Positions 3,571 to 52,294 of a DNA stretch of 64,000 nucleotides are shown one piece after another (position 1 is the stretch's first letter; each line of letters opens with the position of its first letter). The position numbers were made by a program, and so were the translations under genes. The stretch lies in the NCBI GenBank assembly GCA_963663495.1, contig OY760427.1:2524040-2588039 (forward strand). Direction: 5' to 3'. The notes under the pieces are model-generated. The model searched no databases. It was not told the origin of the DNA and worked only from the letters and a program-made list of their open reading frames with translations. Source of the stretch: Rhodothermales bacterium (GTDB lineage: Bacteria > Bacteroidota > Rhodothermia > Rhodothermales > Bin80).

Positions 3571-3807
3571 GGGGATTATAGTACGTGAGTGACCAACTGT
3601 ACACAGTGAGGCACTAGTATCAATTTCATGGGTCATAGGGGTCGGTAACCCGAACGCCCCTCGCCGTGCAGCAGCCCCAATCCCGGAGGCCAGTATGTTT
3701 GCAGCCGCATTCAGGTCTGCATGATCCGTATGTCCACAGGACATACACTTGAATTTGCTCTGCGTCTTACGGTTACTCGCTTCTGTGTGCCCACACACAG
3801 AACACCG
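3571..3807 (-). pseudogene. tnpB: 3' remnant of a tnpB element (Zn finger, RuvC-III, omegaRNA core, right TIR)
   Basis: Near-identical to 6986-7221 (RCSVCGHTEASNRKTQSKF.CMSCGH.DHADLNAAANIL). Ends in GGGGATTATAGTACGTGAGTG at 3571. Confidence 0.85.
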
Positions 3808-6985: not shown

Positions 6986-6990
6986 GGGAA

Positions 6991-8238
6991 TTATATACGT
7001 GAGTGACCAACTGTACACAGTGAGGCACTAGTATCAATTTCACGGGTCATAGGGGTCGGTAACCCGAACGCCCCTCGCCGTGCAGAAGCCCCAATCCCGG
7101 AGGCCAGTATGTTTGCAGCCGCATTCAGGTCTGCATGATCCGCATGTCCACAGGACATACACGTGAATTTGCTCTGCGTCTTACGGTTACTCGCTTCTGT
7201 GTGCCCACACACAGAACACCGACTGGTATAGGCAGCGGTAACCTTTATCACCTTGCGGCACTTATAGCCCAGCATCTGATCCAACTGGCCCCAACCTGTT
7301 CGCAGTATTCCACGGTTGAGGCCAGACTTCTGTCTGACGTTTGTGCCAAAGCTCTCCATCGTCCCCTTAGCTGAACGTGTCATCGCTTTGATCTTTAGGT
7401 CCTCCAGTATCACCGTTGAGGAGCATTTGGCAATACTGCGACTTACCTGGTGGTTCGCATTCTTGAGGATGTTAGCACGCTTGCGCTGTATGCGGGCGAT
7501 TCTATGCTTCGGCCTGTTACGACGGTTGGAGCCTTTCTTCTGTCTCGCCAGTCTTCGCTGATGCCGCTTCAACTTGACATCAAGACGCTTCGTATCCGGT
7601 TGTCTGATAATGCTTGTATCGCCCTCTGTGGAGACCATAGCGATCTGCCCGCAATTACGGTCAATGCCTACAGCACTGCCGGTATCCTCTATTACAGGTG
7701 CCTCAATCTTGTAGCAGATGACAGCATACCCTTTGCCGGCGTTCTTCTTTACAGTGGCTTTGATGGGTATACCATCAGGGTACGGGTTGCCTCCCCGCCT
7801 GCGGAGCGCCATATATCCCACTTTCGGGATATACAGCTTGCCATCCCGAACCCTTACGTTATCCGGGATCGTGAACGAAGGCGTACTACCACGTCTGGAA
7901 TGGAATCTCGGTCTTCTCTTACCTTCCTTGAAGAATGCCTTCCATGCATCCGCCTGATATTTCAATGTGTATCTAACGACACCAAAGGAGTATTCAGGTA
8001 GCCACTCGACCGTGCGGCGCAGTGCCGTGAACCGCTTCCCCAGCGAGAAGAAGCTTACCGAGGGCGGCTTCTCTCCAGCCTCTTTCGCTTTCTTGTAGGC
8101 CTCGCTCTGCTCTGCGAGGATGGCATTCCACACAAACCTACACGCACCCGCTAATCCAGCAAGTTGCTTGGCGTTACTTCGACTTCCGGGCAACAGCCTG
8201 TATGTGATATTGCGGTATGCACTAACCGTTTCGGGCAT
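6991..8238 (-). CDS. tnpB: RNA-guided endonuclease TnpB, RuvC triad intact
   Basis: 415 aa. HTH (GACRFVWN), RuvC-I GIDRN, RuvC-II LEDL, Zn finger CSVC/CMSC, RuvC-III ADLNAA. Confidence 0.95.
   Translation of the reverse strand: MPETVSAYRNITYRLLPGSRSNAKQLAGLAGACRFVWNAILAEQSEAYKKAKEAGEKPPSVSFFSLGKRFTALRRTVEWLPEYSFGVVRYTLKYQADAWKAFFKEGKRRPRFHSRRGSTPSFTIPDNVRVRDGKLYIPKVGYMALRRRGGNPYPDGIPIKATVKKNAGKGYAVICYKIEAPVIEDTGSAVGIDRNCGQIAMVSTEGDTSIIRQPDTKRLDVKLKRHQRRLARQKKGSNRRNRPKHRIARIQRKRANILKNANHQVSRSIAKCSSTVILEDLKIKAMTRSAKGTMESFGTNVRQKSGLNRGILRTGWGQLDQMLGYKCRKVIKVTAAYTSRCSVCGHTEASNRKTQSKFTCMSCGHADHADLNAAANILASGIGASARRGAFGLPTPMTREIDTSASLCTVGHSRI
7031..7115 (-). ncRNA. Putative omegaRNA 3' scaffold core overlapping the tnpB 3' end
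   Basis: About 90% nucleotide identity with 52158-52243, although the two proteins are clearly diverged. It contains a 34-nt identical block, a GGGG-TCGG-GTTA-CCGA-CCCC nested stem and a CACGG/CCGTG pairing. The 5' boundary is unknown. Confidence 0.65.
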
Positions 8239-8439
8239 GGCACTGTGATATATAACTCCCTAATATATGAAAATTATATTCCATGCGTACCCACGTGTTG
8301 AGTTATTTGAAATAATTGCAGTTTTTCGTGAAAAGCGGGAACCGATTATGAACAACTGGCGAAAGCCATCCTGTCTGCACCACCAAAGCACAATAAGTAA
8401 CTCCTGCGAAAACGCGTGGCATTCAGCCATATAACTCCC

Positions 8440-9605
8440 AATCTATACTTCGGTGCCCGTCCTGATAGCTCGCGGGTCTTACGGATGATTGCAGGAACGC
8501 CATCTCCGCGGCGCTCCATGAAGTAGCGCCGGTCTGCAGAGCCGGGGGTGTCGTCCACTCCCATCCGCCCCATCACGGAGGCGATGGCCTCGTTTCGGGT
8601 CGCTTGCTTCAGCGCCATGCTCTCAATGGTCAGGCTATTGGGGAGCGTGCCGGGCGATTGGATTTCCAAGCGGTCGGAGAACATTGATAGGCGGATCCTG
8701 CTGCCGCGAATTGAATAATCTCGATGCGCCACGGCGTTCACGACCGCCTCAAAGATTGCCTTCTCACTGTACTGCGGCATGTTGATCCGTGCGGGCGTCT
8801 CGCGAGCGGCGACTCGCATGTTACGCCACGCAAACGACACCGCGGCCCTGATCTGTCGCTGGAGCGGACCGGTAATTTCCTGCGAGTCCACTTGTCCGGT
8901 CGTACGATCCGTTCCGCGATAGAGGGTTGCCGTAATGGCGGCATTGGGCAACCACTGCTCGGGGCATTGAGTGCACAATAGTACACCAGCCACGGTCGCG
9001 CATTGGACCCCGGAATCATTCGACGCGAGCAGCGCGAGCTTCGCTAGGCCGACCTCCGGCTCGGCGGCGCCCTCGGCGGTCAGCATCGGCACCCATAGCG
9101 CAGGGTCTAACGTGTCGAACCCTGTTCCCGCCACCGGCTGCTCGTCGAACCACAAGTGCCGACCCTGTGCGCGCCGCTGCCTCAACCGCATCGGTTCGTC
9201 GCCTATCAACCGGCGCTTGCTTGCTCCGACCCGGATCCAACTTCGACCGTCGTGCTCGTGCAGCGACTCGCCCCGTGGCACTTCGACCAAGACAAAGGCT
9301 TTGCCGTCCAGCTCCCGGTGATGCACATTGATGCGCAGGGCAGGCTTGATGGCGTCAGTACTCAACTCGGTCACTAGGTTGTTAAGCGTGGTCATCTGTT
9401 CGCGGGTCATACCTTGAAGGAGCCCCCCATCCGTTACGCCCATCAACAGCCGACCGCCGATCGCGTTGGCAAAAGCGATCATCTCGGCGGCGAGATGATC
9501 GCGACTGGGGCTTGCGAAACGTGTGCCAGAGAACTCTACCCGCTTGAACTCCCACCTACTGTCTTCGCCCAGTTGCAGCCGCTGCCGGATGTCCTCGTCA
9601 CGCAT
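8440..9605 (-). pseudogene. N-terminal part of an AlbA_2 (Schlafen-like) + HATPase_c_4 (RecG-C-like) protein, interrupted
   Basis: MRDEDIRQRLQLGEDSRWEFK, FANAIGGRLLMGVTD, EAVVNAVAHRDYSI, LEIQSPG. Rejoined with 6404-6977 it gives a 579-aa ORF. Confidence 0.85.
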
Positions 9606-9607
9606 CG

Positions 9608-9730
9608 TCAGAAGATCATCTCGGCGATGTACTTGGCCGCGTCTATTGAGTCGAGTAACGTATAGGACATAGCCCACAACTCGGCCTTATAGCTGGTCGT
9701 GGCGCCACTGTCATTCTGCTTGGAGGGCAT
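9608..9730 (-). pseudogene. hsdM: N-terminal remnant of type I R-M methyltransferase HsdM
   Basis: MPSKQNDSGATTSYKAELWAMSYTLLDSIDAAKY resembles the HsdM_N pattern YEAELW.MADALRGSMDAAEY. Confidence 0.55.
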
Positions 9731-10676: not shown

Positions 10677-12986
10677 TTATATGAACCCAGATGAATTCCC
10701 GTGCGAACATGCACTCAATTGTTCGTCTCTTACCTCGTATCCCAATGTCATTAGGTGTAACCTCTCTAGGCCACGCCACATGATCTGGTAACCCACCGGT
10801 CCATCACGAGTGCGGTTCTGATAACCGCCGAGCACCGCTACGATCAGGATAGCAGCTCCCAAAGTACTGGGCTTCGGCAGCTTTACCCGTGCTGCATATC
10901 CATCCAAGAATCGCAGCTCCATCTCCGTGAAAAAGACATCCGCGTCCAGCTCCGGCACCTCCCGACCCAATTGCACCAAGGTCATGACGCGCCAGGATAT
11001 CACACAATACATCGTTATTGCTCGCTGCAGACGCAACGAGGTACGCAGACCCAAACGCTCTACCTTGCACCCACTCTTGAGCACGCGGAAGAAGTCTTCC
11101 ACCCGCCACCGCTTGAGATACATGGCCAACACCCGCCGTGCATCCGCTACGCTCCCTACCTCCATGCTGGTCAATAGCATCCACTCCACCGGCAGCGCAT
11201 CCCCCGGAGGCTCCACCTCCAACACATGCACCCCGTACATCACCACCGGCTCCTCCTCGTTCTTCGGATCCGGCAACAAGAACCTCCCGTAGCGTACCTC
11301 CACATTGACCATCCGGTAACTGCGACCCTTCCGTGCCTGCTTGCGCGCCTGCTTCTTGCGCGCCGTCACCCGCTGTATCTCTATCTCCACATTCCCCGGA
11401 GCCTTACCACTGCGCATTACCGCAAACAGCTTGCGATCATCCAACAGCTTGCGATCATGCTTCGCTCGTATCAATACCTCCGCCTTACCCTGTCTGCGCT
11501 GCTCGGCAAACATAGCAAAGCTGTCCGCCTCCCGGTCCGCAACACAGATCACCTGCGTCTCGCCGGACAGCTCCTCCGCCGCCTCGCATATATCCTTGAA
11601 CCCGTCTATCCACTGCTGCGTCCGCGGAGCATGCGGACCCTCCTCCGGATCCTTGAAGCTGCCACGCAACACCCCCAACGTCAATCCATCCTCCGTCACC
11701 ACCAGCGTCGCATGCAACGGCAACCCCAGCGTCTTCGCCGTCGTCTGATTACTCCCTATTACCTCCAAATCCGTACACGCCGGCCGCGTACTGTACCGCA
11801 ACTTCGTCGTGTCCCGGATGCATAACACGGTCTCCTGACTACGCATGCGCTCTATCGTACGCCCACGATGCGGCGCCAATATGTTCTCCGGCGTTACCGT
11901 TTTGTCCTTCTTGCTCTCCAATAACCGGTAATGCCCCTTCACCGCCGCGCGGTCCGCATCCGTATGCGCGGTAATGCTGTGGCCTATCACATCGGCCAAC
12001 ATGGACGTACTCTTTACCAGTCGCACAGACAACCGCCTGTCTCCCAATGGCGCTCCGCCAAACTCCGTTTCGGCCCACTGCGCACTGTCAATCCCCTCGT
12101 GCGGATCCCTCACCGGACGCAACTCCTCCTCCGGTTCCCCCAAGGTCCCGCGCCATTCTTTGTCCAACTCGTATACATACAGCCCCTTGGGATCCTCTTC
12201 CTTTGCCTCCTTGTGCCGCTTTCCGCCTGCGGTATGGCCGATCAATACAAAATTGTTCACCTCAAAACACGCTCCTTCCCCTTGGGGATCCACATACGTT
12301 TCGACAACCCAGGGACGGTAACAGTACCGTGCCTGAAAATCATCCGCCAACCGTCTCAATACCTTACCCAGTACATGGCTGGCCAAATCCTGACACTGCC
12401 CCCGTATCAGAAAACGACTCAAACACACCACACGGTGCAAATGCGCCTTGCGCTGCTCATCACTCCACGCCATCCAGTGCTCTCTGGGCGCCAGGCACAA
12501 CGCCGCCGCCGAAAATCCCACCGCTCCCAGGTAACCATGGGCACTGCCTATCAGATAGCGTACCTGCGCTCCCACAAATGTGGTCGTACGCCTCGGATGC
12601 TCAAAGTGCAGCAACGTGTTCCACACCATACGCTGCTCGTCCGTCTCAACCAACTCAATCGTCAACCCCCGGACACCGTGTACCGTGCCCGGTAACGCTA
12701 TCGGATCCGGTACCCGCTCCTCGCGCCTACGCGGTTCCGCCTTAGCCGCATTACAATTCTCGGGCTTGGGCAACACAATCCTCCCCCGGGCCTCCAACTT
12801 CGATAAAGCCTGCGCACAGTTGCTCACCTGCGGTTCGCCCCGTGCATCAACAAACCCGAACTCTTCACAGACAGCGCGCGCTATCTGCGTGCGAAACCGC
12901 CAACGATCGTCGGCAAGAACCCTGTCCAAACGCTCTCCATTGCAGGGAGCGGTGAGCGTTCGTAAGACCTGACCTCGTTGAAACAT
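10677..12986 (-). CDS. IS4 (Tn5-like) transposase with N-terminal DUF4338 (DruA-like) domain, intact
   Basis: 769 aa. YLIGSAHGYLGAVGFSAAA (DUF4338), WAETEFGGAPLGDRRL (Tn5-N), DDE residues in IRDTT, ADREAD and RWRVEDFFRVLKSGC. Left end CTACCAC at 13036. Confidence 0.9.
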   Translation of the reverse strand: MFQRGQVLRTLTAPCNGERLDRVLADDRWRFRTQIARAVCEEFGFVDARGEPQVSNCAQALSKLEARGRIVLPKPENCNAAKAEPRRREERVPDPIALPGTVHGVRGLTIELVETDEQRMVWNTLLHFEHPRRTTTFVGAQVRYLIGSAHGYLGAVGFSAAALCLAPREHWMAWSDEQRKAHLHRVVCLSRFLIRGQCQDLASHVLGKVLRRLADDFQARYCYRPWVVETYVDPQGEGACFEVNNFVLIGHTAGGKRHKEAKEEDPKGLYVYELDKEWRGTLGEPEEELRPVRDPHEGIDSAQWAETEFGGAPLGDRRLSVRLVKSTSMLADVIGHSITAHTDADRAAVKGHYRLLESKKDKTVTPENILAPHRGRTIERMRSQETVLCIRDTTKLRYSTRPACTDLEVIGSNQTTAKTLGLPLHATLVVTEDGLTLGVLRGSFKDPEEGPHAPRTQQWIDGFKDICEAAEELSGETQVICVADREADSFAMFAEQRRQGKAEVLIRAKHDRKLLDDRKLFAVMRSGKAPGNVEIEIQRVTARKKQARKQARKGRSYRMVNVEVRYGRFLLPDPKNEEEPVVMYGVHVLEVEPPGDALPVEWMLLTSMEVGSVADARRVLAMYLKRWRVEDFFRVLKSGCKVERLGLRTSLRLQRAITMYCVISWRVMTLVQLGREVPELDADVFFTEMELRFLDGYAARVKLPKPSTLGAAILIVAVLGGYQNRTRDGPVGYQIMWRGLERLHLMTLGYEVRDEQLSACSHGNSSGFI

Positions 12987-33570: not shown

Positions 33571-34809
33571 ATGGTGGTTCAACATCAGAATCTGAAGACA
33601 CTGCGTGCCGCTCCATGTGAGTTGACAGAGGTCATGGAGCAGCATCCTGACGATGGTCGCACAGCGATAAGTCGCCGTGTGAGTGAAACGTTTGGCTTTT
33701 ATGATGCCTTAGGGCGTGTGCAGCACAGCAGTTGTTTGCAGGCGCTCAAGACACTCGAAGCCGAGGGGGCGCTGTCCTTACCTACACCGAAGCGCGTGGT
33801 CCGAAGCACAGTGCCTCGTTTGTTGGACGAACCGGTACCTGCGCCTGTTGGAGTGCCGACATTGCTCAAGGATGTGCGCGGCCTGGAGTTGGAATTGGTA
33901 GAAGATGCCGGGCAGCGTGCGATCTGGAATACGCTTGTGGAGGCCGAGCATCCGTTGTGTGCGCCACGGTTTGCCGGACGGCAGTTGCGCTATCTTGTCG
34001 GGAGCGAGCATGGCTACATCGGAGCGATAGGCTTTGCGGCTGCGGCGCTGTATCTGAAGGCGCGCGACAGATGGATGGCGTGGTCGGACGAGCAGCGTGA
34101 GGACTACCGGGACCATGTCGTGGGTTTGAATCGGTTCCTGATTCGCTCCATGGTGCGGATCAGGAACCTTGCCAGCCATACATTGGGGAAGGTATTGCGT
34201 CGTTTTCCGGAGGATTTTGAGAACCGTTCAAACAGGTATCCATATGATGGATTCTACGAACTGTTTAACAAAGCCTCGCAAGTTCCAGCGCCGGGGGCAG
34301 GAACTGGACCTTGGGCGGGGCAATTCTACATGAAGGACCCGCCTGAAGTGCACACGACGATACATATACACCACAAATTCTCCCAGTCGGGCCCTGCCTA
34401 TCCGGGTGCAAATGACACCTGCGCGCGATCATCCACATTACGGGAAAATGAAACCCACCGGACTGTCAATAATCGCTGTGGCACATCTAAAGAATTGGAA
34501 TCATATTTCCACATGGTTTTGGCACACGAGCGGGATCACGAGGCCGGAATCAACGAGTGTCTTACGTCCAGCTCAAAGGCGAAGGACACGATGAAGAAAT
34601 TAGAAAAGACCGTTGCCAACAGCAGCGCCGACCTGCAGGATAGTGCACAAGATTTATGGGAAGAGTTCTATGATAATTCACTGACACAGTCTGGGCTCTC
34701 GGGAAAATCCTATGCAAGCCTTGACGAGCACTTCTGGCACTACGGCATTATCGGATGGGAGCTCGGTTGGGTTGGAATAGCTACGGAGAAATTAGTTGAT
34801 AATTGTTAA
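33571..34809 (+). CDS. Chimeric DUF4338(IS4)-HExxH ORF, copy 1
   Basis: The first ~220 aa match the IS4 at 41457-42575. From SNRYPYDG onward it matches the lipoprotein C-terminus. Confidence 0.75.
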   Translation: MVVQHQNLKTLRAAPCELTEVMEQHPDDGRTAISRRVSETFGFYDALGRVQHSSCLQALKTLEAEGALSLPTPKRVVRSTVPRLLDEPVPAPVGVPTLLKDVRGLELELVEDAGQRAIWNTLVEAEHPLCAPRFAGRQLRYLVGSEHGYIGAIGFAAAALYLKARDRWMAWSDEQREDYRDHVVGLNRFLIRSMVRIRNLASHTLGKVLRRFPEDFENRSNRYPYDGFYELFNKASQVPAPGAGTGPWAGQFYMKDPPEVHTTIHIHHKFSQSGPAYPGANDTCARSSTLRENETHRTVNNRCGTSKELESYFHMVLAHERDHEAGINECLTSSSKAKDTMKKLEKTVANSSADLQDSAQDLWEEFYDNSLTQSGLSGKSYASLDEHFWHYGIIGWELGWVGIATEKLVDNC

Positions 34810-34820
34810 ATGGTGACGCA

Positions 34821-35474
34821 ATGAAGATGAAAACGATGTTGTTATTGTTCATCCTGATTCCGGTCGGACTCCGGGCGCAATCGAACGGTCTGATGTTTAA
34901 GGACGGCGAATGGCAAAAACCGACGCCTGCTGCGGCTCTACGCGCATTCGAGGCAGACCCAAACGGCGATTCTGACGATTCCGATAAGCCCATCCTTGCC
35001 GTATTGCGCCAACGATATCAAGCGTTCACGGATGAAGAGCTGAACGCACTAGCCGAGAACCTCGTAGTAATGATTCGCGAAGGAACGCCTGAGCAAGCGC
35101 ATAATGCGTTTGATGTGCTGCTCTTTTCTGGCCGGCCACAGTTCGCCCCCAGTGAAGATACCCCATACGCGGGAGCAAAAGATATATTTATTCGCCTGTA
35201 CGAGTCAGGCCTGGACAGAAGATCAGACGGTCTAACCAGGAAAGTCGCACTGCTGGGTGTTTACTCTGCCGGTGGATACGATTACGTTCGGAACCTGTTC
35301 GGAGCGAGTGAACTGCCGCCCCCTTGCCAATATCAACTAAGGCGTTCGGTTGAAAATCCGTGCCCGAATAAGGGCACTTGGTGCGATGCCGGATTGATAT
35401 TGTTGTCAAATGAAGACGAGCATGCACCAGACAGCGAGCTGTGGCGCAGGCGCTGCGGCCAACCTAGGAGATAG
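34821..35474 (+). CDS. Secreted partner protein, copy 2
   Basis: Paralog of 32670-33341 with a variant central region and a 2-nt insertion at the extreme C-terminus. Confidence 0.75.
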   Translation: MKMKTMLLLFILIPVGLRAQSNGLMFKDGEWQKPTPAAALRAFEADPNGDSDDSDKPILAVLRQRYQAFTDEELNALAENLVVMIREGTPEQAHNAFDVLLFSGRPQFAPSEDTPYAGAKDIFIRLYESGLDRRSDGLTRKVALLGVYSAGGYDYVRNLFGASELPPPCQYQLRRSVENPCPNKGTWCDAGLILLSNEDEHAPDSELWRRRCGQPRR

Positions 35475-35711
35475 GTTTTTAGGTCCATGTAGGAGATGCT
35501 GGAATGCAAGCAGCTGCACTGGTGATGGCCGCATTTATGACTCTGGACGCAAACGGACGGCATATTGCTTACGGAGGGCGCAAAGTAGACGCCCACACCT
35601 ACTTTAATGCTCCGTGCAATCAAGGTAGAACCGAGGGAAGGCAGACCTAGGCCTACCGTTCAACCGGTACCCCTACTTAACTTTATAATTCATGCCGCTT
35701 AGATTGGCGGC

Positions 35712-36950
35712 ATGGTGGTTCAACATCAGATTCTGAAGACACTGCGTGCCGCTCCATGTGAGTTGACAGAGGTCATGGAGCAGCATCCTGACGATGGTCG
35801 CACAGCGATAAGTCGCAGTGTGAGTGAAGCGTTTGGCTTTTATGATGCCTTAGGGCGTGTGCAGCACAGCAGTTGTTTGCAGGCGCTCAAGACACTCGAA
35901 GCCGAGGGTGCGCTGTCCTTGCCTGCACCGAAGCGCGTGGTCCGAAGCGCTGTGCCTCGTTTGTTGGACGAACCGGTACCTGCGCCTGTTGGAGTGCCGA
36001 CGTTGCTCAAGGATGTGCGCGGCCTGGAGTTGGAATTGGTAGAAGATGCCGGGCAGCGTGCGATCTGGAATACGCTTGTGGAGGCCGAGCATCCGATGTG
36101 TGCGCCACGGTTTGCCGGGCGGCAGTTGCGCTATCTTGTCGGGAGCGAGCATGGCTACATCGGAGCGATAGGCTTTGCGGCTGCAGCGCTGTATCTGAAG
36201 GCGCGCGACAGATGGATGGCGTGGTCGGACGAGCAGCGTGAGGACTACCGGGACCATGTCGTGGGTTTGAATCGGTTCCTGATTCGCTCCATGGTGCGGA
36301 TCAGGAACCTTGCCAGCCATACACTGGGGAAGGTATTGCGTCGTTTTCCGGAGGATTTTGAGAACCGTTCAAACAGGTATCCATATGATGGATTCTACGA
36401 ACTGTTTAACAAAGCCTCGCAAGTTCCAGCGCCGGGGGCAGGAACTGGGCCTTGGGCGGGGCGATTCTACATGAAGGACCCGCCTGAAGTGCACACGACG
36501 ATACATATACACCACAAATTCTCCCAGTCGGGCCCTGCCTATCCGGGTGCAAATGACACCTGCGCGCGATCATCCACATTACGGGAAAATGAAACCCACC
36601 GGACTGTCAATAATCGCTGTGGCACATCTAAAGAATTGGAATCATATTTCCACATGGTTTTGGCACACGAGCGGGATCACGAGGCCGGAATCAACGAGTG
36701 TCTTACGTCCAGCTCAAAGGCGAAGGACACGATGAAGAAATTAGAAAAGACCGTTGCCAACAGCAGCGCCGACCTGCAGAATAGTGCACAAGATTTATGG
36801 GAAGAGTTCTATGATAATTCACTGACACAGTCTGGGCTCTCGGGAAAATCCTATGCAAGCCTTGACGAGCACTTCTGGCACTACGGCATTATCGGATGGG
36901 AGCTCGGTTGGGTTGGAATAGCTACGGAGAAATTAGTTGATAATTGTTAA
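35712..36950 (+). CDS. Chimeric DUF4338(IS4)-HExxH ORF, copy 2
   Basis: As copy 1. Confidence 0.75.
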   Translation: MVVQHQILKTLRAAPCELTEVMEQHPDDGRTAISRSVSEAFGFYDALGRVQHSSCLQALKTLEAEGALSLPAPKRVVRSAVPRLLDEPVPAPVGVPTLLKDVRGLELELVEDAGQRAIWNTLVEAEHPMCAPRFAGRQLRYLVGSEHGYIGAIGFAAAALYLKARDRWMAWSDEQREDYRDHVVGLNRFLIRSMVRIRNLASHTLGKVLRRFPEDFENRSNRYPYDGFYELFNKASQVPAPGAGTGPWAGRFYMKDPPEVHTTIHIHHKFSQSGPAYPGANDTCARSSTLRENETHRTVNNRCGTSKELESYFHMVLAHERDHEAGINECLTSSSKAKDTMKKLEKTVANSSADLQNSAQDLWEEFYDNSLTQSGLSGKSYASLDEHFWHYGIIGWELGWVGIATEKLVDNC

Positions 36951-36961
36951 ATGGTGACGCA

Positions 36962-37630
36962 ATGAAGATGAAAACGATGTTGTTATTGTTCATCCTGATT
37001 CCGGTCGGACTCCGGGCGCAATCGAACGGTCTGATGTTTAAGGACGGCGAATGGCAAAAACCGACGCCTGCTGCGGCTCTACGCGCATTCGAGGCAGACC
37101 CAAACGGCGCTGACGATTCCGATAAGCCCATCCTTGCCGTATTGCGCCAACGATATCAAGCGTTCACGGATGAAGAGCTGAACGCACTAGCCGAGAACCT
37201 CGTAGTAATGATTCGCGAAGGAACGCCTGAGCAAGCGGATAATGCGTTTGATGTGCTGCTCTTTTCTGGCCGGCGACAGTTCGCCCCCAGTGAAGATACC
37301 CCATACGCGGGAGCAAAAGATATATTTATTCGCCTGTACGAGTCAGGCCTGGACAGAAGATCAGAGGGTAAGGGATTTTCCATAACCTGGAAATCCGCAC
37401 TGCAGGGTGTTTACTCTGCCGGTGGATACGATTACGTTCGGAACCTGTTCGGAGCGAGTGAACTGCCGCCCCCTTGCCAATATCAACTAAGGCGTCCGGT
37501 TGAAAATCCGTGCCCGAATAAGGGCACTTGGTGCGATGCCGGATTGATATTGTTGTCAAATGAAGACGAGCATGCACCAGACAGCGAGCTGTGGCGCAGG
37601 CGCTGCGGCCAACCTAGGATAGGTTTTTAG
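36962..37630 (+). CDS. Secreted partner protein, copy 3
   Basis: Paralog with a 3-nt in-frame deletion. Confidence 0.75.
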   Translation: MKMKTMLLLFILIPVGLRAQSNGLMFKDGEWQKPTPAAALRAFEADPNGADDSDKPILAVLRQRYQAFTDEELNALAENLVVMIREGTPEQADNAFDVLLFSGRRQFAPSEDTPYAGAKDIFIRLYESGLDRRSEGKGFSITWKSALQGVYSAGGYDYVRNLFGASELPPPCQYQLRRPVENPCPNKGTWCDAGLILLSNEDEHAPDSELWRRRCGQPRIGF

Positions 37631-37859
37631 GTCCATGTAGGAGATGCTGGAATGCAAGCAGCTGCACTGGTGATGGCCGCATTTATGACTCTGGACGCAA
37701 ACGGACGGCATATTGCTTACGGAGGGCGCAAAGTAAACGCCCACACCTACTTTAATGCTTCGTGCAATCAAGGTAGAACCGAGGGAAGGCAGACCTAGGC
37801 CTACCGTTCAACCGGTACCCCTACTTAACTTTATAATTCATGCCGCTTAGATTGGCGGC

Positions 37860-39098
37860 ATGGTGGTTCAACATCAGATTCTGAAGACACTGCGTGCCGC
37901 TCCATGTGAGTTGACAGAGGTCATGGAACAGCATCCGGACGATGGTCGCACAGCGATAAGTCGCCGTGTGAGTGAAGCGTTTGGCTTTTATGATGCCTTA
38001 GGGCGTGTGCAGCACAGCAGTTGTTTGCAGGCGCTCAAGACACTCGAAGCCGAGGGGGCGCTGTCCTTACCTACACCGAAGCGCGTGGTCCGAAGCACAG
38101 TGCCTCGTTTGTTGGACGAACCGGTACCTGCGCCTGTTGGAGTGCCGACATTGCTCAAGGATGTGCGCGGCCTGGAGTTGGAATTGGTAGAAGATGCCGG
38201 GCAGCGTGCGATCTGGAATACGCTTGTGGAGGCCGAGCATCCGTTGTGTGCGCCACGGTTTGCCGGACGGCAGTTGCGCTATCTTGTCGGGAGCGAGCAT
38301 GGCTACATCGGAGCGATAGGCTTTGCGGCTGCGGCGCTGTATCTGAAGGCGCGCGACAGATGGATGGCGTGGTCGGACGAGCAGCGTGAGGACTACCGGG
38401 ACCATGTCGTGGGTTTGAATCGGTTCCTGATTCGCTCCATGGTGCGGATCAGGAACCTTGCCAGCCATACATTGGGGAAGGTATTGCGTCGTTTTCTGGA
38501 GGATTTTGAGAACCGTTCAAACAGGTATCCATATGATGGATACTGCGAACTGTTTAACAAAGCCTCACAAGTTCCAGCGCCGGGGGCAGGAACTGGGCCT
38601 TGGGCGGGGCGATTCTACATGAAGGACCCGCCTGAAGTGCACACGACGATACATATACACCACAAATTCGCCCAGTCGGGCCCTGCCTATCCGGGTGCAA
38701 ATGACACCTGCGCGCGATCATCCACATTACGGGAAAATGAAACCCACCGGACTGTCAATAATCGCTGTGGCACATCTAAAGAATTGGATTCATATTTCCT
38801 CATGGTTTTGGCACACGAGCGGGATCACGAGGCCGGAATCAACGAGTGTCTTACGTCCAGCTCAAGGGCAAAGGACACGATGAAGAAATTAGAAAAGACC
38901 GTTGCCAACAGCAGCACCGACCTGCAGGATAGTGCACAAGATTTATGGGAAAAGTTCTATGATAATTCACTGACACAGTCTGGGCTCTCGGGAAAATCCT
39001 ATGCAAGCCTTGACGAGCACTTCTGGTACTACGGCATTATCGGATGGGAGCTCGGTTGGGTTGGAATAGCTACGGAGAAATTAGTTGATAATTGTTAA
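37860..39098 (+). CDS. Chimeric DUF4338(IS4)-HExxH ORF, copy 3
   Basis: As copy 1. Confidence 0.75.
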   Translation: MVVQHQILKTLRAAPCELTEVMEQHPDDGRTAISRRVSEAFGFYDALGRVQHSSCLQALKTLEAEGALSLPTPKRVVRSTVPRLLDEPVPAPVGVPTLLKDVRGLELELVEDAGQRAIWNTLVEAEHPLCAPRFAGRQLRYLVGSEHGYIGAIGFAAAALYLKARDRWMAWSDEQREDYRDHVVGLNRFLIRSMVRIRNLASHTLGKVLRRFLEDFENRSNRYPYDGYCELFNKASQVPAPGAGTGPWAGRFYMKDPPEVHTTIHIHHKFAQSGPAYPGANDTCARSSTLRENETHRTVNNRCGTSKELDSYFLMVLAHERDHEAGINECLTSSSRAKDTMKKLEKTVANSSTDLQDSAQDLWEKFYDNSLTQSGLSGKSYASLDEHFWYYGIIGWELGWVGIATEKLVDNC

Positions 39099-39109
39099 AT
39101 GGTGACGCA

Positions 39110-39763
39110 ATGAAGATGAAAACGATGTTGTTATTGTTCATCCTGATTCCGGTCGGACTCCGGGCGCAATCGAACGGTCTGATGTTTAAGGACGGCGAAT
39201 GGCAAAAACCGACGCCTGCTGCGGCTCTACGCGCATTCGAGGCAGACCCAAACGGCGATTCTGACGATTCCGATAAGCCCATCCTTGCCGTATTGCGCCA
39301 ACGATATCAAGCGTTCACGGATGAAGAGCTGAACGCACTAGCCGAGAACCTCGTAGTAATGATTCGCGAAGGAACGCCTGAGCAAGCGCATAATGCGTTT
39401 GATGTGCTGCTCTTTTCTGTCCGGCGACAGTTCGCTGAAGATACCCCATACGCGGGAGCAAAAGATATATTTATTCGCCTGTACGAGTCAGGCCTGGACA
39501 GAAGATCAGACGGTCTAACCTGGAAAGCCGCACTGCAGGGTGTTTACTCTGCCGGTGGATACGATTACGTTCGGAACCTGTTCGGAGCGAGTGAACTGCC
39601 GCCCCCTTGCCAATATCAACTAAGACGCCCGGTTGAAAATCCGTGCCCGAATAAGGGCACTTGGTGCGATGCCGGATTGATATTGTTGTCAAATGAAGAC
39701 GAGCATGCACCAGACAGCGAGCTGTGGCGCAGGCGCTGCGGCCAACCTAGGATAGGTTTTTAG
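39110..39763 (+). CDS. Secreted partner protein, copy 4
   Basis: Paralog that is 6 nt and 12 nt shorter at two in-frame positions than copy 1. Confidence 0.75.
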   Translation: MKMKTMLLLFILIPVGLRAQSNGLMFKDGEWQKPTPAAALRAFEADPNGDSDDSDKPILAVLRQRYQAFTDEELNALAENLVVMIREGTPEQAHNAFDVLLFSVRRQFAEDTPYAGAKDIFIRLYESGLDRRSDGLTWKAALQGVYSAGGYDYVRNLFGASELPPPCQYQLRRPVENPCPNKGTWCDAGLILLSNEDEHAPDSELWRRRCGQPRIGF

Positions 39764-39933: not shown

Positions 39934-42634
39934 CTACCGTGCGCCCAGTTCAGATACCAGACACTGTATAATATTTGTCTGTTTTTGCAAGTTTGGTGTA
40001 GTGATTGGTTCTTTCAAGAGGTGCGGAGCCCTCGGACCGGAGTGATGCTTGCACCGGGGATGCGGGAAACGTAGCATCATTTGGCATGCGCGAGGCGCTT
40101 GCCTATGCGATGGACATACGTCGGCGCTATAACGCCCGGTAGCTCTGGCGTCTTTACAGTTCTCTTCCAAATCCCCGTTGCCATCGCACTAAACGTTGGC
40201 GCGGCAACGACGCTGGGGGGCAGGTATCACTCCCGGCTTTGGGTACGTTTATTGCTTCGCGTGCTCGTCATTCTCGCTTAACGATGAGAACTTCTCTCCG
40301 TATCATATGGTATCGCTTCTCAAGGACGGCAAAGGTCTTGGCCCCTATCTCCAACCGGCTGTAGCCGCGCCAGATGACCTTGGAGCCTGGAGGCCGGTCC
40401 TTCTTCCGATCCATATAGCCACCAAAGACGGCCACCACCCGAATAGCAGCCCCGAGTGTCTTTGGAGGCGGCAGTCCAAACTCGTCGGCAAGCTCGTGCA
40501 ACAGGCGCAGTTCCATCTCATCAAACAATCCTTCCGGCGACGCTTCGGGTTCCTCGCGCCCCAGAAGCGTCATCAATAGCAGGCGCCACGCCATCACCAT
40601 ACAGATCGTAATGGCATTGTGCAGACTCTTGGCCTGCCGCATACCCAGCCGCTCTACCGCACAGCCGCTCTTGAGCACACGGAACATGTCTTCCACACGC
40701 CACCGCAACACGTAGTAGCCTACCACCTCAATAGCTTGCTCCAGCGTCGTAACCTCTTGGGTCGTCAATAGATACCACTGTACCGGTCGCTCTCCGGCTG
40801 GCGGCTGCACCTCCCGAACATGAATCGCACTGACCTGCACCGGATCCTCCTGCGACTTACCCGGCGCCGGAAGCGATAGGCGGCGGAAACGTACCTGCAT
40901 CCGCGCCAGACGGCCCGACCGCCCCTTATGCTTGACTCGACCTGACTTCACGCGGCGGCTCAAACGAGCAATCGGCACTTCCATGTGTCCTGCCGGACGG
41001 CCCGACCGCATGGTCGCAAACAACTTGGGAGACTTTTTACCCAATAGCCGATTCACCTTGGCTCGCACCAATATGTCCACACGCCCTGCGCTGCGCTGCT
41101 GCGCCAGGATCGCAAACACATCCGCCTCGCGGTCCATGACACACAGCACACGGGTACGACCACTCAGATGCGAGGCGGCTTCCGCTATGTCCCGCACGCC
41201 GTCTATCCATAACTGTGTCTTAGGAGCAGGAGCCTCTTGGTCGGTTGTATAGGCACAGCGTAAGATCCCCAACGGCACACCGTCCTCACCCACCGCCAGC
41301 GTAGCGTGCAAATGCACTCCTTTTGCCTTTGATGTGGTCTGATTGTGCCCTATCACATCCAACCCCTCGCACGCCGGACGAGTACTGTAGCTGATGTCCG
41401 TGCCATCCTGGATGCACAGCACCGTCCGTTGCGTACGCATCCGCTCTATCGTGCGATCACGATGCGGCTGCAAAATCTTCTCCGGCGTGATCTCGTTCTC
41501 GGCCGCTTTCTCCAAAAAACGGTAGTATCCCCGCCCGATCAGCGTCCAGATTGGCCGTGATCAATTCTCCTGGAGTGCGTGAAAGCATGGCCACGCTGTG
41601 TACCAACTGGTCCGAACGGCGTTTGTCCCCCAACGGCGCTCCACCAAACTCCTGTTCTGCCCATGTATCACTGGCCAGCCCCGCACCCACCTCCAGCTCG
41701 GGATACGCCTCCACAACCGGCACTCCAAGCTCCTGCCTCCAATCACCACCCAGATCATACACGAAAACCGCCTTCTTCTCTTTGGTGCATGCATTACCAG
41801 GAGCATGACGCCCACGCCCCTTGGTTTTTCCCACACACTGAAACCCCGCAGCCCGAAAACACGTGCCGCGATGTTCGGGGCTCACAAAGGTCTCTATCAC
41901 CCACGGCACATACCCGTAATCGTTCTCAAAATCCTCCGGTAAACGACGCAATACCTTCCCCAGTGTATGGCTGGCAAGGTTCCTGATCCGCACCATGGAG
42001 CGAATCAGGAACCGATTCAAACCCACGACATGGTCCCGGTAGTCCTCACGCTGCTCGTCCGACCACGCCATCCATCTGTCGCGCGCCTTCAGATACAGCG
42101 CCGCAGCCGCAAAGCCTATCGCTCCGATGTAGCCATGCTCGCTCCCGACAAGATAGCGCAACTGCCGTCCGACAAACCGTGGCGCACACATCGGATGCTC
42201 GGCCTCCACAAGCGTATTCCAGATCGCACGCTGCCCGGCATCTTCTACCAATTCCAACTCCAGGCCGCGCACATCCTTGAGCAATGTCGGCACTCCAACA
42301 GGCGCAGGTACCGGTTCGTCCAACAAACGAGGCACTGTGCTTCGGACCACGCGCTTCGGTGCAGGCAAGGACAGCGCACCCTCGGCTTCGAGTGTCTTGA
42401 GCGCCTGCAAACAACTGCTGTGCTGCACACGCCCTAAGGCATCATAAAAGCCAAACGCTTCACTCACACGGCGACTTATCGCTGTACGACCATCGTCAGG
42501 ATGCTGCTCCATGACCTCTGTCAACTCACATGGAGCGGCACGCAGTGTCCTCAGAATCTGATGTTGAACCACCATGCCGCCAATCTAAGCGGCATGAATT
42601 GCAAAGTCAAGTAGGGGTACCGGTTTAACGGTAG
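39934..42634 (-). mobile_element. Full-length DUF4338-IS4 element
   Basis: Imperfect 18-bp TIRs starting CTACCGT. 8-bp TSD ACCTAGGC at 39926-39933 and 42635-42642. Confidence 0.9.
40268..42575 (-). pseudogene. DUF4338-IS4 transposase, frameshifted
   Basis: Split into 41457-42575 and 40268-41515 at DADRA/GYYRFL. DDE residues in IQDGT, MDREAD and RWRVEDMFRVLKSGC. Confidence 0.85.
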
Positions 42635-48738: not shown

Positions 48739-49941
48739 ATGGCGATAGCATTAGCTTTCAGCGGCGGTTTGGATACATCGTTCTGTGTTCCGTATCTGAA
48801 GGAGACATTCCGGGAGCCCGTTATTACCGTGACCATCGATACGGGCGGGCTGGAGCCCGGCGCACACGCTGCGCTGGAAGAAAAGGCCCTGAGCCTTGGT
48901 GCCTCTCGGCATTTTACCATTGATGGAAAGCCAGCTCTCTTTGATGACCACTTGCAGTACCTCATTATGGGCAATGTCCTGCGTGGCAGCGTTTACCCGC
49001 TGTGCGTGGGTTCCGAACGCGTGGTGCAAGCCACAAAGCTGGTGGAGGTGGCCAAGGCACAAGGCGCCCGTGCCATCGCTCATGGATGCACCGGAGCTGG
49101 TAATGATCAGGTTCGGTTTGATGTGGTTATCCGCCTCCTTGCGGACGACATGGAGATCATCGCCCCAATTCGAGATAAAGGGCTTACCCGTCAGGAAACT
49201 ACGGAATATCTTGGATCAAGGGGCCATACCATACCACCATCAACTACCTCTTACTCGGTAAATACCGGCCTCTGGGGCACCACTATAGGAGGAGCTGAGA
49301 CGCACACTACCACCGCTCCCCTCCCCGACCATGCATACCCTGACACCATATCCCCAACAAAAGCTCCCGACGCTGCAGAATCTATCGAGCTGATTTTCGA
49401 AAAAGGACTGCCCGTGGCACTTTCCGGCCAGCCGCTGGACGGCGTTGACCTCGTACTTGGCTTAAGCACCGTGGGGGCACGGCATGGCATCGGACGCGGT
49501 ATCCATGTGGGCGACACGATTTTGGGACTCAAAGGACGCGTTGCATTTGAAGCACCAGGGCCAATGATACTGTTGGCAGCCCATCGCGAACTGGAAAAGA
49601 TCGTGCTCACCAAGTGGCAACGGTTCCAGAAGGATCAGTTGGCAGAATTGTATGGCATGCTGCTCCACGAGGGACAACACTTTGATCCGGTGATGCGCGA
49701 TATTGAGGCATTCTTGCAGTCGTCGCAGACGGTCGTCAGCGGTACCGTGCAGGTACGGCTCTATAAGGGGAATGTCTCGGTGATCGGTTGCGACAGTCCC
49801 CATTCCATGTTCAACACGGATATCGCTCATTACGGGGAACATGCCTCCTTGTGGGACGGACGCGATGCGGAAGGATTCTGTCGCATCGTAGGGTTGCAAG
49901 CCTATCTGGCCCGCAAATCGCGAGTGGAGCCCGGTGATTGA
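48739..49941 (+). CDS. argG: Argininosuccinate synthase
   Basis: ALAFSGGLDTS, AHGCTGAGNDQVRF, KGRVAFEAP. Confidence 0.96.
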   Translation: MAIALAFSGGLDTSFCVPYLKETFREPVITVTIDTGGLEPGAHAALEEKALSLGASRHFTIDGKPALFDDHLQYLIMGNVLRGSVYPLCVGSERVVQATKLVEVAKAQGARAIAHGCTGAGNDQVRFDVVIRLLADDMEIIAPIRDKGLTRQETTEYLGSRGHTIPPSTTSYSVNTGLWGTTIGGAETHTTTAPLPDHAYPDTISPTKAPDAAESIELIFEKGLPVALSGQPLDGVDLVLGLSTVGARHGIGRGIHVGDTILGLKGRVAFEAPGPMILLAAHRELEKIVLTKWQRFQKDQLAELYGMLLHEGQHFDPVMRDIEAFLQSSQTVVSGTVQVRLYKGNVSVIGCDSPHSMFNTDIAHYGEHASLWDGRDAEGFCRIVGLQAYLARKSRVEPGD

Positions 49942-50968
49942 CTGCATGTCCTGCGAAACCACATCGTCTGTTGCAGTGCTGCATGGCGGAGGCTATGCAG
50001 GGCGTGAGCTGATCCAACTCCTTGTACGCCATCCCTACACGGCACTGACTGCGGTCACAAGCCGCACATTCGCCGGCGGGCCCGTCCATACCGCCCACCC
50101 GTCGCTACGCGGCCAGACGGACCTGCGATATGTGAACCCCGCAAATGTGGACCTGCTTGCAATGGATGCCCTTATCCTCGCTGCCGAGCACGGCAAAGCA
50201 GCTGCCGTCGTCCATCAACTGGTCCGGGCCGGATACGATGGTGTAATTATTGATTTAAGTGCAGACTTCAGGTTTGCGGATGCCGGTGAGTATGAAAAAC
50301 GGTTCAACCGTTCTCACCCGGCCCCGGATCTGGTGCCACGTTTTTCGTACGGGCTTGCAGAGGTTTGCGCACCGTACGGCGGGCGCTTCATTGCGAATCC
50401 CGGCTGCTTCGCCACTGGCATTGCGTTGGCCTTGCGGCCGATTTCTCAGGCTATAGGTGCGGTGACAGCGCAGGTCACAGCCCTTACGGGCGCGTCCGGA
50501 TCAGGAACACTACCCAAACCCACGACCCACTTTCCGTCGAGAGACGGAAATGTGCGTGCCTACCGCCCGCTGAACCACCAGCACCTGCCTGAAGTGCTGA
50601 GCATGTTGGAGCCGGGATCCAATGTGGCCTTTGTGCCTGTTTCCGGGCCTTGGACGCGCGGAATTTGGGGGATGGCCTATGTGCAGCTGCCAGGCAGCGT
50701 AAGCATGCAGGAGGTGGACGGCTGGTTCAGTGCGGCGTATCCGGCCGGCCGCTGTGTGCGCACATGGTCCGGCCAGCTCCCCGAATTGCACTATGCGCTA
50801 GGAACACCCTATTGCGATATTGGGTGGACCATCAGAGACGGCGTGCTGGTCATCGTTTTCGCGCTGGACAACCTGCTGAAAGGCGCCGCCTCCCAAGCGG
50901 TGCAGAACCTCAATCTGGTAATGGGCTGGCCAGAAACAGCCGGATTGATAAGGGGTTTATATGCCTGA
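49934..50968 (+). CDS. argC: N-acetyl-gamma-glutamyl-phosphate reductase (last codons altered by an insertion)
   Basis: GGGYAG, DLSADFR, ANPGCFAT, DNLLKGAASQAVQN. Confidence 0.93.
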   Translation: MIDCMSCETTSSVAVLHGGGYAGRELIQLLVRHPYTALTAVTSRTFAGGPVHTAHPSLRGQTDLRYVNPANVDLLAMDALILAAEHGKAAAVVHQLVRAGYDGVIIDLSADFRFADAGEYEKRFNRSHPAPDLVPRFSYGLAEVCAPYGGRFIANPGCFATGIALALRPISQAIGAVTAQVTALTGASGSGTLPKPTTHFPSRDGNVRAYRPLNHQHLPEVLSMLEPGSNVAFVPVSGPWTRGIWGMAYVQLPGSVSMQEVDGWFSAAYPAGRCVRTWSGQLPELHYALGTPYCDIGWTIRDGVLVIVFALDNLLKGAASQAVQNLNLVMGWPETAGLIRGLYA

Positions 50969-52270
50969 GTACCCCCGACTATGAACCTTTGGCTTGATGG
51001 ATGTTATGCCCGCAAAGGGTTGTAACAATTCTGCCCGCGTTTGTTCTGTCTATAGAACAATTGAATACCGGCTGCCTCCGGGGAGCAAGAGCAAGGGAAA
51101 GAAACTAGCCGGGATTGCTGGTGCTTGCAGGTTCGTGTGGAACGCCATACTGGCGCAGTGCATCCAGGGATACAAACGGGCAAATGAGTCGGGAGAGAAG
51201 CCTCCGTCCGTGAAGTACTTCTTCCCTCTTGGAAAACGGTTTAAAGAACTATGAGATCGCACCGAGTGGCTGCCGAAGTACTCGTTCAGCGTGGTGCGCT
51301 ATACGCTGAAGGTCCAACCCGACGCATGGAAGGCTTGCTTCAATCAAGGTAGGGCTAAACCGAAGTTCAAAGCCAAATACAGAAGCAATCCATCATTCAC
51401 CATTCCTGAAGCGGTCAAGATAAAGGATAGACGGATGTTCATCCCCAAGCTTGGATACCTGAAGATCCGACGTAAAGGAGGCAACCCGTATCCGGATGGG
51501 GTTCCTGTAAAAGCCGTGATTCTGCAACGGGTGGGCAAATGGTATGCCTGCACATGCTACAGGATTGAAGCACCTGAGATAGAAGACAATGGCGTTGCCA
51601 CAGGGATAGACCGTACCTGCGGACAGGTTGCCACCGTCTCCACCGATGGCAAGCGCGAGATCATACGGCAACCGGACGGTAAGCGTAATACGGCAAAACT
51701 GCACCGGTATCAACGGAAATCAGCCCGACAGCAGAAAGGATCCAACCGCAGATATCGCACTAAGAAGCGACTCTGGAAAGCTCACCGAGCGATTGCGATG
51801 ACCCGCAGGGATACCAATCACCAAGCAAGCCGGAGGATCGCGAATCGCTCTTCTACGGTTGTGCTGCCAGATCTTTATGTCGTGGCGATGACTTCATCTG
51901 CCAAAGGGACTGCTGACAATCCAGGCAAGAACGTCGCCCGGAAGGCAGGGCTGAACCGTAGCATTAATGCCACCGGATGGGGGCAGTTAGACGGGATGCT
52001 GCAGTACAAATGCCGGGAAGTGCTCAAGATCCCAGCCCCTTACACGAGTCAGGACTGCAACAACTGCGGTCGCCGGGACAAAGCGAATAGATTGACCCAA
52101 AGTAAATTCAAGTGTGTCTCATGTGGATACACCGACAATGCGGACCCTAACGCTGCCGCAAACATATTGGTCTCCGGGATTGGGGCGACTGCACGGCGAG
52201 GGGCGTTCGGGTTACCGACCCCATTGATCTGTGAAATTGATACGCGAGGGCACTCACGTAGATAATTCCC
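50952..52270 (+). mobile_element. Second TIR/TSD-bounded tnpB element
   Basis: Left end GGGGTTTATATGCCTGAGTA, right end CACTCACGTAGATAATTCCC. ATTGATAA is duplicated at 50944-50951 and 52271-52278. Confidence 0.9.
50994..52265 (+). pseudogene. tnpB: TnpB with an in-frame TGA (51252-51254) and RuvC-II E replaced by P
   Basis: ORFs 50994-51254 and 51291-52265 are in the same frame. Motifs GIDRT, LPDL (LEDL in the other copy), CNNC/CVSC, ADPNAA. Confidence 0.9.
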
Positions 52271-52294
52271 ATTGATAACCTAACCGGTACACTC

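Follow-up and report, generated by a model that had tools for sequence, protein, structure and literature searches.

The arg operon in the stretch of Rhodothermales DNA considered here (the window, meaning the whole 64-kb stretch, on which all coordinates are based) is interrupted between argC and argD by a segment whose only gene is a relative of tnpB. The question raised by this locus is what kind of element the segment is and how it reached its site. The feature is with good confidence an old, defective insertion of a non-autonomous IS1595 (ISNwi1-type) transposon of approximately 1.3 kb, with tnpB and an overlapping guide RNA (ωRNA) as its sole cargo. An earlier note on this DNA had described an independent insertion into the last codons of argC, flanked by a target-site duplication (TSD), and every observed detail of that description proved correct on direct reading. 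The element, read directly from the sequence, is 1,319 bp long (50952-52270). Its parts, terminal inverted repeats (TIRs) included, and its immediate neighbours are as follows.

49934..50968, + strand: argC, with Pfam semialdehyde dehydrogenase domains
50943, + strand: G directly 5' of the left TSD; going by the family statistic given below, a candidate for the final base of TnpB's target-adjacent motif (TAM)
50944..50951: left TSD copy ATTGATAA, in the last codons of the original argC
50952..50974, + strand: left TIR GGGGTTTATATGCCTGAGTACCC, IS1595/ISNwi1 type, matching the best autonomous IS1595 TIR at 13/16 positions
51006..52265, + strand: tnpB pseudogene of 419 codons (ATG at 51006, in-frame TTG at 50994), the sole gene of the element
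52115..52270, + strand: conserved structured RNA region, putative ωRNA scaffold, overlapping the 3' end of tnpB and continuing into the right TIR
52248..52270, - strand: right TIR (reverse complement GGGAATTATCTACGTGAGTGCCC)
52271..52278: right TSD copy ATTGATAA, a perfect 8-bp duplicate of the left copy
52271..52290, + strand: predicted ωRNA guide ATTGATAACCTAACCGGTAC (TSD plus right flank), if the scaffold ends at the element end (PMC10711439, PMC10691335)
52295..53452, + strand: argD (class-III aminotransferase), with a TTG start at 52295

The TIR arms of the argC copy (20-23 bp) are imperfect (17/23 positions match), and in its right TIR a position that is almost invariant has changed from T to G (TAGATAA, where TATATAA is usual). 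The argC open reading frame (ORF) runs into the element and ends in ...WPETAGLIRGLYA*, so that the ArgC C terminus reads GLIRGLYA* in place of GLIT*, with the element-encoded RGLYA standing for the final T. In silico removal of the element and one TSD copy gives ...WPETAGLIT*, with the TTG start of argD 11 nt further on, and the insertion has increased the argC-argD distance by 1,327 bp. The changed argC end and the separation of argC from argD, both put forward in the earlier note, are confirmed by the ORF and by this removal. The conserved core of ArgC homologs ends in ...WPETAGL(I/L), and because their tails past this core vary (1 to about 20 residues), the swap of T* for RGLYA* is probably harmless to ArgC.

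The nearest available relatives (loci L082 and L083; ArgC 75% and 67% identical) have no insert at this position. Both have the operon order argG-argC-argD-argF-argB-argE, with an argC/argD overlap of 4 bp or a gap of 5 bp. Because argC adjoins argD in these relatives, the insert-free arrangement is taken from the sequence comparison to be the ancestral state. A scan of the element for promoters and terminators gave nothing above chance and no terminator-like site on the + strand. Transcriptional read-through into argD is possible, and the insertion may affect argD-argE expression.

The source is probably a metagenome-derived assembly and is very repeat-rich, and such a source could in principle yield junctions that are assembly chimeras or a chance nesting of repeats. 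The junctions are precise, however, with a perfect TSD; removal of the element restores both the in-frame stop and the argC-argD spacing of relatives; and the same architecture recurs at 36 independent loci. An artefact of this kind can be given almost no weight.

A second full copy in the window (copy 1, detailed below) is the diverged paralog to which the earlier note referred. It has the same TIR type, a different perfect TSD and 61% amino-acid identity to the argC copy. In both window copies the two perfect 8-bp repeats lie exactly outside matched TIRs, an arrangement that, going by the sequence, is not chance. The wider family was surveyed in one genome per species, which gave 373 relatives, and the best 80 loci were inspected. 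At 36 of these 80 loci, tnpB lies between TIRs beginning GGGRNTTATAT, and the element is flanked by a perfect 8-bp TSD whose sequence is different from site to site. These 36 further tnpB-only elements substantiate the earlier proposal that the family moves as a TIR-bounded unit. Family elements are 1,273-1,565 bp long, tnpB is the sole gene in all of them, and perfect 8-bp TSDs are present in 38/38 selected elements.

The hosts are metagenome-assembled genomes (MAGs) labelled Rhodothermales, Paracoccaceae, other Alphaproteobacteria, Pseudomonadales, Arenicellales and Candidatus Poriferihabitans, and protein identity within the family falls to about 41%. Judged by these labels, the family is one that crosses several bacterial phyla, and its hosts are apparently marine host-associated genomes. 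A tblastn search of plasmids with TnpB returned only IS605/IS609-type relatives of approximately 35% identity. In the source genome itself the cluster of P0001, an intact relative that is 99% identical to copy 1 and lies on the same contig as the window, alone comprises 212 distinct member sequences, and 14 of its 15 listed members are on that one contig. The window is placed on this 5,919,514-bp contig through its own ArgC (P0149), which is recorded there. TnpB clusters above 30 copies were not reported by Altae-Tran et al. (2023, PMC10691335), and a 212-member cluster is unusual by that measure. A side observation concerns one Pseudomonadales MAG locus (L056, 1610-4259), which has approximately 1.3 kb of extra sequence in the 5' untranslated region relative to a 96%-identical sister (L049). 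This family member lacks a clean TSD; its extra segment has no ORF and no IS1595 similarity and is probably a secondary insertion.

The protein has the domain architecture of OrfB_IS605: Pfam finds HTH_OrfB_IS605, OrfB_IS605 and Cas12f1-like_TNB (helix-turn-helix, RuvC and zinc-ribbon, respectively). This architecture would fit an ordinary IS200/IS605 (IS1341-type) tnpB-only element that a Y1 TnpA acting in trans mobilises in single-stranded form, the apparent TIRs being misread subterminal hairpins, and IS1341-type solo tnpB elements are common (2026 review, PMC13565253). However, IS200/IS605 elements have no TIRs and no TSDs and insert 3' of a fixed 4-5-nt motif (PMC13565253), whereas the inverted repeats of 38 elements here run end to end, and the perfect 8-bp duplications beside them vary in sequence. 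The protein scores well above the NCBIfam cutoff of 100 for guided_TnpB (copy 1, 236.7 bits; the fragment of copy 2, the argC copy, 180.1 bits), but the family-specific scores are under their cutoffs for both IS200_TnpB (180.5 versus 425) and IS607_TnpB (86.4 versus 350). An IS200/IS605 origin of the element is thus highly improbable.

The ends of the element, which the earlier note had not assigned, lead to a different family. The ISNwi1 group of IS1595 was suspected to be the source of these ends, and this was tested on transposase-bearing elements. A published alignment of IS1595 transposases (PMC8101967 supplement) was used to search plasmids, genomes and metagenomes, and the element ends were read; about 30 transposase-bearing IS1595 elements served as controls. 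For IS1595, 8-bp TSDs have been reported, and the TIRs of its eukaryotic Merlin relatives start with GG (PMC8101967). Some members of the ISNwi1 group also have passenger genes (Siguier et al. 2009, summarised in PMC8101967). The control transposases pass NCBIfam transpos_IS1595, and one 78%-identical transposase homolog is named 'ISNwi1' by NCBI. Plasmid elements annotated 'IS1595 family transposase' open with GGCGATTATATCC..., GGGGATTATGTATTTGAC..., GGCGATTGTATACTTGAC... or GGGGATTATATACTTGACACC, and the TIRs of autonomous IS1595 elements are GGCGATTATATCCTTTACGC, GGGGATTATGTATTTGACAAAC, GGCGATTGTATACTTGACAAACC, GGGGATTATATACTTGACACC and similar. Among 21 complete metagenomic IS1595 elements the TIR consensus is GGCGATTATATACTTGAC, and a perfect 8-bp TSD is present in 21/21.

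The TIR consensus of the tnpB elements is GGGgATTATATacaTgA, and individual elements have ends nearly identical to those of IS1595 (L045, GGCGATTATATCCTTGACTG; L073, GGGGATTATATACTTAACTTGAC). When the first 16 nt are compared with the best IS1595 TIR, tnpB elements match at a mean of 12.5 positions on the left and 11.6 on the right, versus a mean of 5.1 for random 16-mers (99.9th percentile: 10). The slot taken by tnpB in the family elements is the cargo slot of autonomous IS1595 elements. Because the ends match those of autonomous IS1595 elements, yet no transposase lies inside, the element is classified from its sequence as a non-autonomous IS1595-type transposon with tnpB as cargo. The ISNwi1-type autonomous elements examined (L086, L107-L123 and L124-L203; 1.8-3.9 kb) regularly have toxin-antitoxin-like cargo (PIN, SocA_Panacea, and DUF433 plus PIN_10) in the interval from transposase to right TIR. 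In the Roseobacter-group copies the transposase start is always preceded by the left TIR at a distance of 69 bp.

Several other DDE families make 8-bp TSDs and have ends starting with GG, and the mover could be one of these (ISL3, IS256, IS6 or IS66) instead of IS1595. ISL3 and IS256 transposases are found near some tnpB copies, and no IS1595 transposase was found nearby. On the other side, the ISL3 element beside L006 has a different TIR (GGCTCTTCG), and the TIRs of the tnpB elements fit the IS1595/ISNwi1 type over 12-15 of their first 16 nt, far above chance. A mover from another DDE family is very unlikely.

Four observations weigh against an IS1595-type transposon that benefits from its TnpB. 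A hidden Markov model (HMM) search found no IS1595 transposase in the window or in the approximately 650 kb around 83 tnpB and related loci. None of 80 metagenomic IS1595 loci carries tnpB, so no transposase-plus-tnpB intermediate is known. The element-free argC-argD allele, expected as GCCGGATTGATAACCTAACCGG (the empty site in the earlier note being GGATTGATAACCTAA), had no exact match at the argC site among JGI metagenome contigs. Finally, DDE excision already leaves a double-strand break, which makes the benefit of TnpB homing less obvious than for IS605/IS607 (PMC13565253). Three further searches were also negative. No transposase-plus-tnpB composite was present in the viral contigs searched. 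The best 120 matches of an IS1595 profile search were all Roseobacter-type, with none on the sponge-MAG contigs concerned. ORF clustering and Pfam searches for a partner transposase in the flanks of 80 tnpB loci returned only group II intron reverse transcriptases, ISL3, IS630-type and housekeeping genes.

The tnpB gene of the argC copy is not intact. A TGA at 51252-51254 breaks its reading frame after codon 82. Its RuvC-II motif reads CTG CCA GAT CTT (LPDL; Pro codon at 51867-51869); in copy 1 and in all relatives this motif is LEDL. A Leu-to-Pro change lies beside the RuvC-III Asp (52146-52148). The copy keeps both Asp residues of the catalytic triad (the D in GID and the D in ADPNAA) and loses the Glu (E288P). 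Ten diverse family members define 106 invariant columns, and the argC copy differs at five of them (R83*, A105P, N204T, E288P and L381P), while copy 1 departs at one. The closest relative of the argC copy is P0010 (88% identity), which like P0001 is intact and lies on the same contig as the window. It has Arg at the position of the stop, LEDL and ADLNAA, and the full D-E-D triad is present both in P0010 and in copy 1. The E-to-P change is private to the argC copy, and the P0010 cluster consists largely of truncated variants.

The earlier note had offered two explanations for this copy, decay or a nuclease already dead (TldR-like), and had asked whether close homologs without the stop also have LPDL. 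As the LEDL of P0010 shows, the stop-free close homolog does not. The first explanation is supported, with the stop and 5/106 residues changed, and the second is not supported, as P0010 keeps LEDL. A domesticated, nuclease-dead TnpB that serves as RNA-guided regulator of the arg operon would account for the replacement of the catalytic E by P and for the position of tnpB within the operon in the same orientation, and the predicted guide would match the argC-argD junction. Such a regulator would not be expected to have an in-frame TGA after codon 82 and four more altered family-invariant residues. The closest relative also keeps the triad, the TIRs and TSD are retained, the subfamily cluster is largely made up of truncated variants, and no conserved inactive clade was seen. 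A TldR-like repressor would be expected as a gene that is intact, conserved and immobilised, and the argC copy fits none of the three. Domestication is accordingly very unlikely, and because the closest relative keeps LEDL the argC tnpB is best regarded as a pseudogene through ordinary decay rather than a TldR-like repressor. The argC copy as a whole appears to be nearly neutral and decaying; it alters one ArgC residue and is of little importance in itself.

The second part of the cargo is a putative RNA. A covarying structure lies within the last approximately 190 nt of the element and ends in the right TIR. The last approximately 150 nt of tnpB DNA are 82.7% identical between a window copy and the fragment, versus 65.8% overall. 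With the final 220 nt of 38 elements aligned, RNAalifold derived a consensus of 26 pairs in six helices, 16 of the pairs having compensatory double changes. Paired cells amount to 95.5%, a figure that falls to 30-49% in controls with partners slid by 1-3 columns, and double-change cells number 111, versus 4-20 in these slid controls. None of 500 shuffles reached the observed covariation values. In the argC copy one pair of the structure is broken and two are G-U. One hairpin falls within the codons of the AFGLPT motif, and there the peptide (AFSLET, AFALAT, ALPLGT) shifts in step with the stem. A scan of the whole window with Rfam found no family match. The covarying structure is likely to be the TnpB ωRNA scaffold, given its covariation.

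The insertion sites suggest what TnpB may contribute. When 38 empty sites were reconstructed in tnpB orientation, the consensus was a G followed by the TSD, WWWNNWWN. Immediately 5' of the TSD, on the tnpB-upstream side, 35/38 tnpB elements have a G (1.46 bits), and at the mirror position beyond the TSD only 14/38 have the corresponding C (Fisher p=6e-7). In autonomous IS1595 elements the same position is G in only 6/31 (p=4e-10 versus tnpB elements; 5/21 from metagenomes and 1/10 left ends from plasmids and genomes). A G on the tnpB-upstream side alone is thus found in about 92% of surviving insertions, where about 20-29% would be expected. In Rhodothermales copies the terminal 13 bp are identical in both TIRs, and therefore the transposase has little means to tell left from right. 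For a guide that begins with the first base beyond the right end, a TAM would have to lie exactly at the position of this G, and in the occupied site this position is C (...TTCCC). From the sequence pattern we infer that the G would act as the TAM, or as the final base of one, and that the persisting insertions would be those with a usable TAM.

The G could instead be a target preference of the transposase or transposases that move the tnpB elements, or some other orientation-linked effect. The tnpB elements do show a tighter, symmetric WWWNNWWN preference in their TSDs than the autonomous controls, so their transposase may differ in its choice of target. Against this, the G bias is one-sided (35/38 versus 14/38 at the mirror position) despite the identical terminal 13 bp of the Rhodothermales TIRs, and the G sits exactly at the TAM position for a guide that starts after the right end. 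A transposase preference is somewhat unlikely on this evidence, although it has far more in its favour than the other alternatives considered here. As for the TSD itself, positions 2, 3 and 7 are G or C in only 0-1/38 tnpB elements, versus 8/21 (position 2) and 4/21 (position 7) in the controls, and position 1 is G in 0/38 tnpB elements versus 7/21 autonomous elements. Candidate causes of this tighter AT preference are a different transposase or an effect of the TnpB seed or TAM.

The proposed model for the interaction of transposon and nuclease is as follows. An IS1595-type DDE transposase acting in trans would insert the element. In intact copies the ωRNA guide would be the right-flanking DNA (the TSD plus flank), with which TnpB would cut an element-free allele, and repair by recombination would restore or spread the element. 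The near-universal G 5' of the TSD would serve as the TAM for that cut, while the element end (...CCC) would shield the occupied site from TnpB. In the argC copy this system would be dead, the insertion persisting as a nearly neutral one. Taken together, these TnpBs may have adapted to a TSD-making DDE transposon through relaxation of the TAM to about one base (G), and cutting of the empty site (homing or restoration) may be close to a requirement for the element to persist and to multiply beyond 200 copies per genome; alternatively, TnpB itself may help to choose the insertion site or orientation. This joint proposal is tentative and is held with distinctly less confidence than the identity of the element.

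The window has two other copies of the element, both on the - strand.

6986..8439, - strand: copy 1, of the same TIR type as the argC copy
6991-8238, - strand: copy 1 tnpB (415 aa), with a one-codon deletion in the TSQ motif
6978-6985 and 8440-8447: copy 1 TSD, AATCTATA on the + strand, perfect
8418-8439 (outer) and 8239-8260 (inner), - strand: left TIRs of copy 1
3571..3804, - strand: third copy, truncated at its 5' end: right TIR GGGGATTATAGTACGTGAGTGACC and the final approximately 230 nt of tnpB, which comprise the entire RNA scaffold region

The two left TIRs of copy 1 are 179 bp apart, with an extra 157 bp. As in L007, the inner TIR immediately precedes the ATG, which is the canonical place. 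It is the outer left TIR that the TSD adjoins, and therefore the last move used the outer end. An ORF with Schlafen AlbA_2 and HATPase_c_4 domains (8346-9677, - strand) extends 94 nt into copy 1, its last 31 residues being element-derived. Both full copies in the window are inserted at the extreme 3' ends of genes. The third copy could function by itself as an ωRNA, with a guide of its own (AAATCAAGG...); stand-alone ωRNAs are mentioned in PMC10691335.

The first 13 kb of the window are crowded with mobile-element remains. These include an IS110-type DEDD transposase fragment (2705-3355, + strand) and a DUF772 (IS5/IS1182-type) transposase fragment (5068-5910, - strand). A 769-aa protein (10677-12986, - strand) combines a Tn5/IS4-type DDE transposase with a DruA-like (Druantia) domain fused at the N terminus. 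A second DruA-like/transposase arrangement is split over two ORFs (40268-42575, - strand), and positions 33571-39763 (+ strand) hold three tandem units of approximately 2.1 kb, each with a DruA-like 412-aa ORF and a 223-229-aa ORF without a Pfam match.

Compared with known systems, the tnpB elements share with the ISNwi1 group of IS1595 the 8-bp TSD, the GG start of the TIR, the core GG(C/G)(G/A)ATTATAT(A/C).TTGAC and the placement of cargo beside the right end. They differ from that group in having no Zn-ribbon plus DDE_Tnp_IS1595 transposase, and from autonomous IS1595 elements in having tnpB and an ωRNA as cargo instead of toxin-antitoxin-like genes and in the one-sided G by the TSD. TnpB within DDE transposons with symmetric ends has been described, with solo copies mobilised in trans; six branches were found, with IS630 named (Altae-Tran et al. 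2023, PMC10691335), and ISL2 and IS1031 have been named as further DDE associations of TnpB (PMC13565253). Like those DDE-associated TnpBs, tnpB here lies between symmetric TIRs with its 3' end within 250 bp of the element end, and like the trans-mobilised solo TnpBs, the solo copies presumably moved in trans (PMC10691335). Unlike them, the family has IS1595 as its host family and an 8-bp TSD of variable sequence, and no transposase-linked copy was found. A link between TnpB and IS1595 was absent from the literature searched, including the main texts of PMC10691335 and PMC13565253.

IS200/IS605 and IS607 are the two families known to carry TnpB. The TnpBs of IS1341-type (IS200/IS605) and IS607 elements share the domain architecture seen here, along with an ωRNA overlapping the 3' end and extending to the right end, but those elements are without TIRs or TSDs and are moved by Y1 or serine recombinases. 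IS607 in particular has a serine recombinase, no TIR or TSD and a GG crossover (PMC13565253). The eukaryotic Fanzor2* and Fanzor1 (Yoon et al. 2023, PMC10711439) are similar in that a TnpB-type nuclease lies in a TIR/TSD transposon with a guide RNA running through the TIR. The tnpB family is bacterial, in contrast, and its TSD is 8 bp and variable; because it is variable, it could not be absorbed into a fixed RNA scaffold, as has been proposed for fixed TSDs (PMC10711439).

The best natural sequence matches with solved structures are RdCas12n, type V-N (PDB 9J09), and ISDra2 TnpB (8H1J), and a nuclease designed by artificial intelligence (9yyg) scores above both. The C-terminal RuvC/TNB half of the family protein aligns with RdCas12n (E=1.9e-23), including the SAKGT..G.NV..K.GLNR insertion, and the whole protein aligns with ISDra2 TnpB (1.1e-21). 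Unlike RdCas12n, the family has no CRISPR array, and the reported protospacer-adjacent motifs of RdCas12n (AAC, AAG) differ from the G signal seen here, as does the TAM of ISDra2 (TTGAT).

TnpB is the ancestor of Cas12. To our knowledge, its natural role has been established for IS605 and IS607 alone, both of which leave no scar on excision. Whether a DDE cut-and-paste transposon would gain anything from RNA-guided homing has been raised as an open point (PMC13565253). What is new relative to published DDE-associated TnpBs is IS1595 as the host family, the variable 8-bp TSD, the extreme amplification and a TAM-like signature at the insertion sites. The bias in insertion sites suggests that the nuclease helps such a transposon to persist. 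The family, with its compact TnpB (approximately 400 aa) and covarying putative ωRNA, is a natural test case for the benefit of TnpB to a DDE transposon. Its one-sided signature predicts a minimal G TAM, and it reaches extreme copy numbers in one genome. A near-absent TAM requirement, if true, would be of interest to genome editing.

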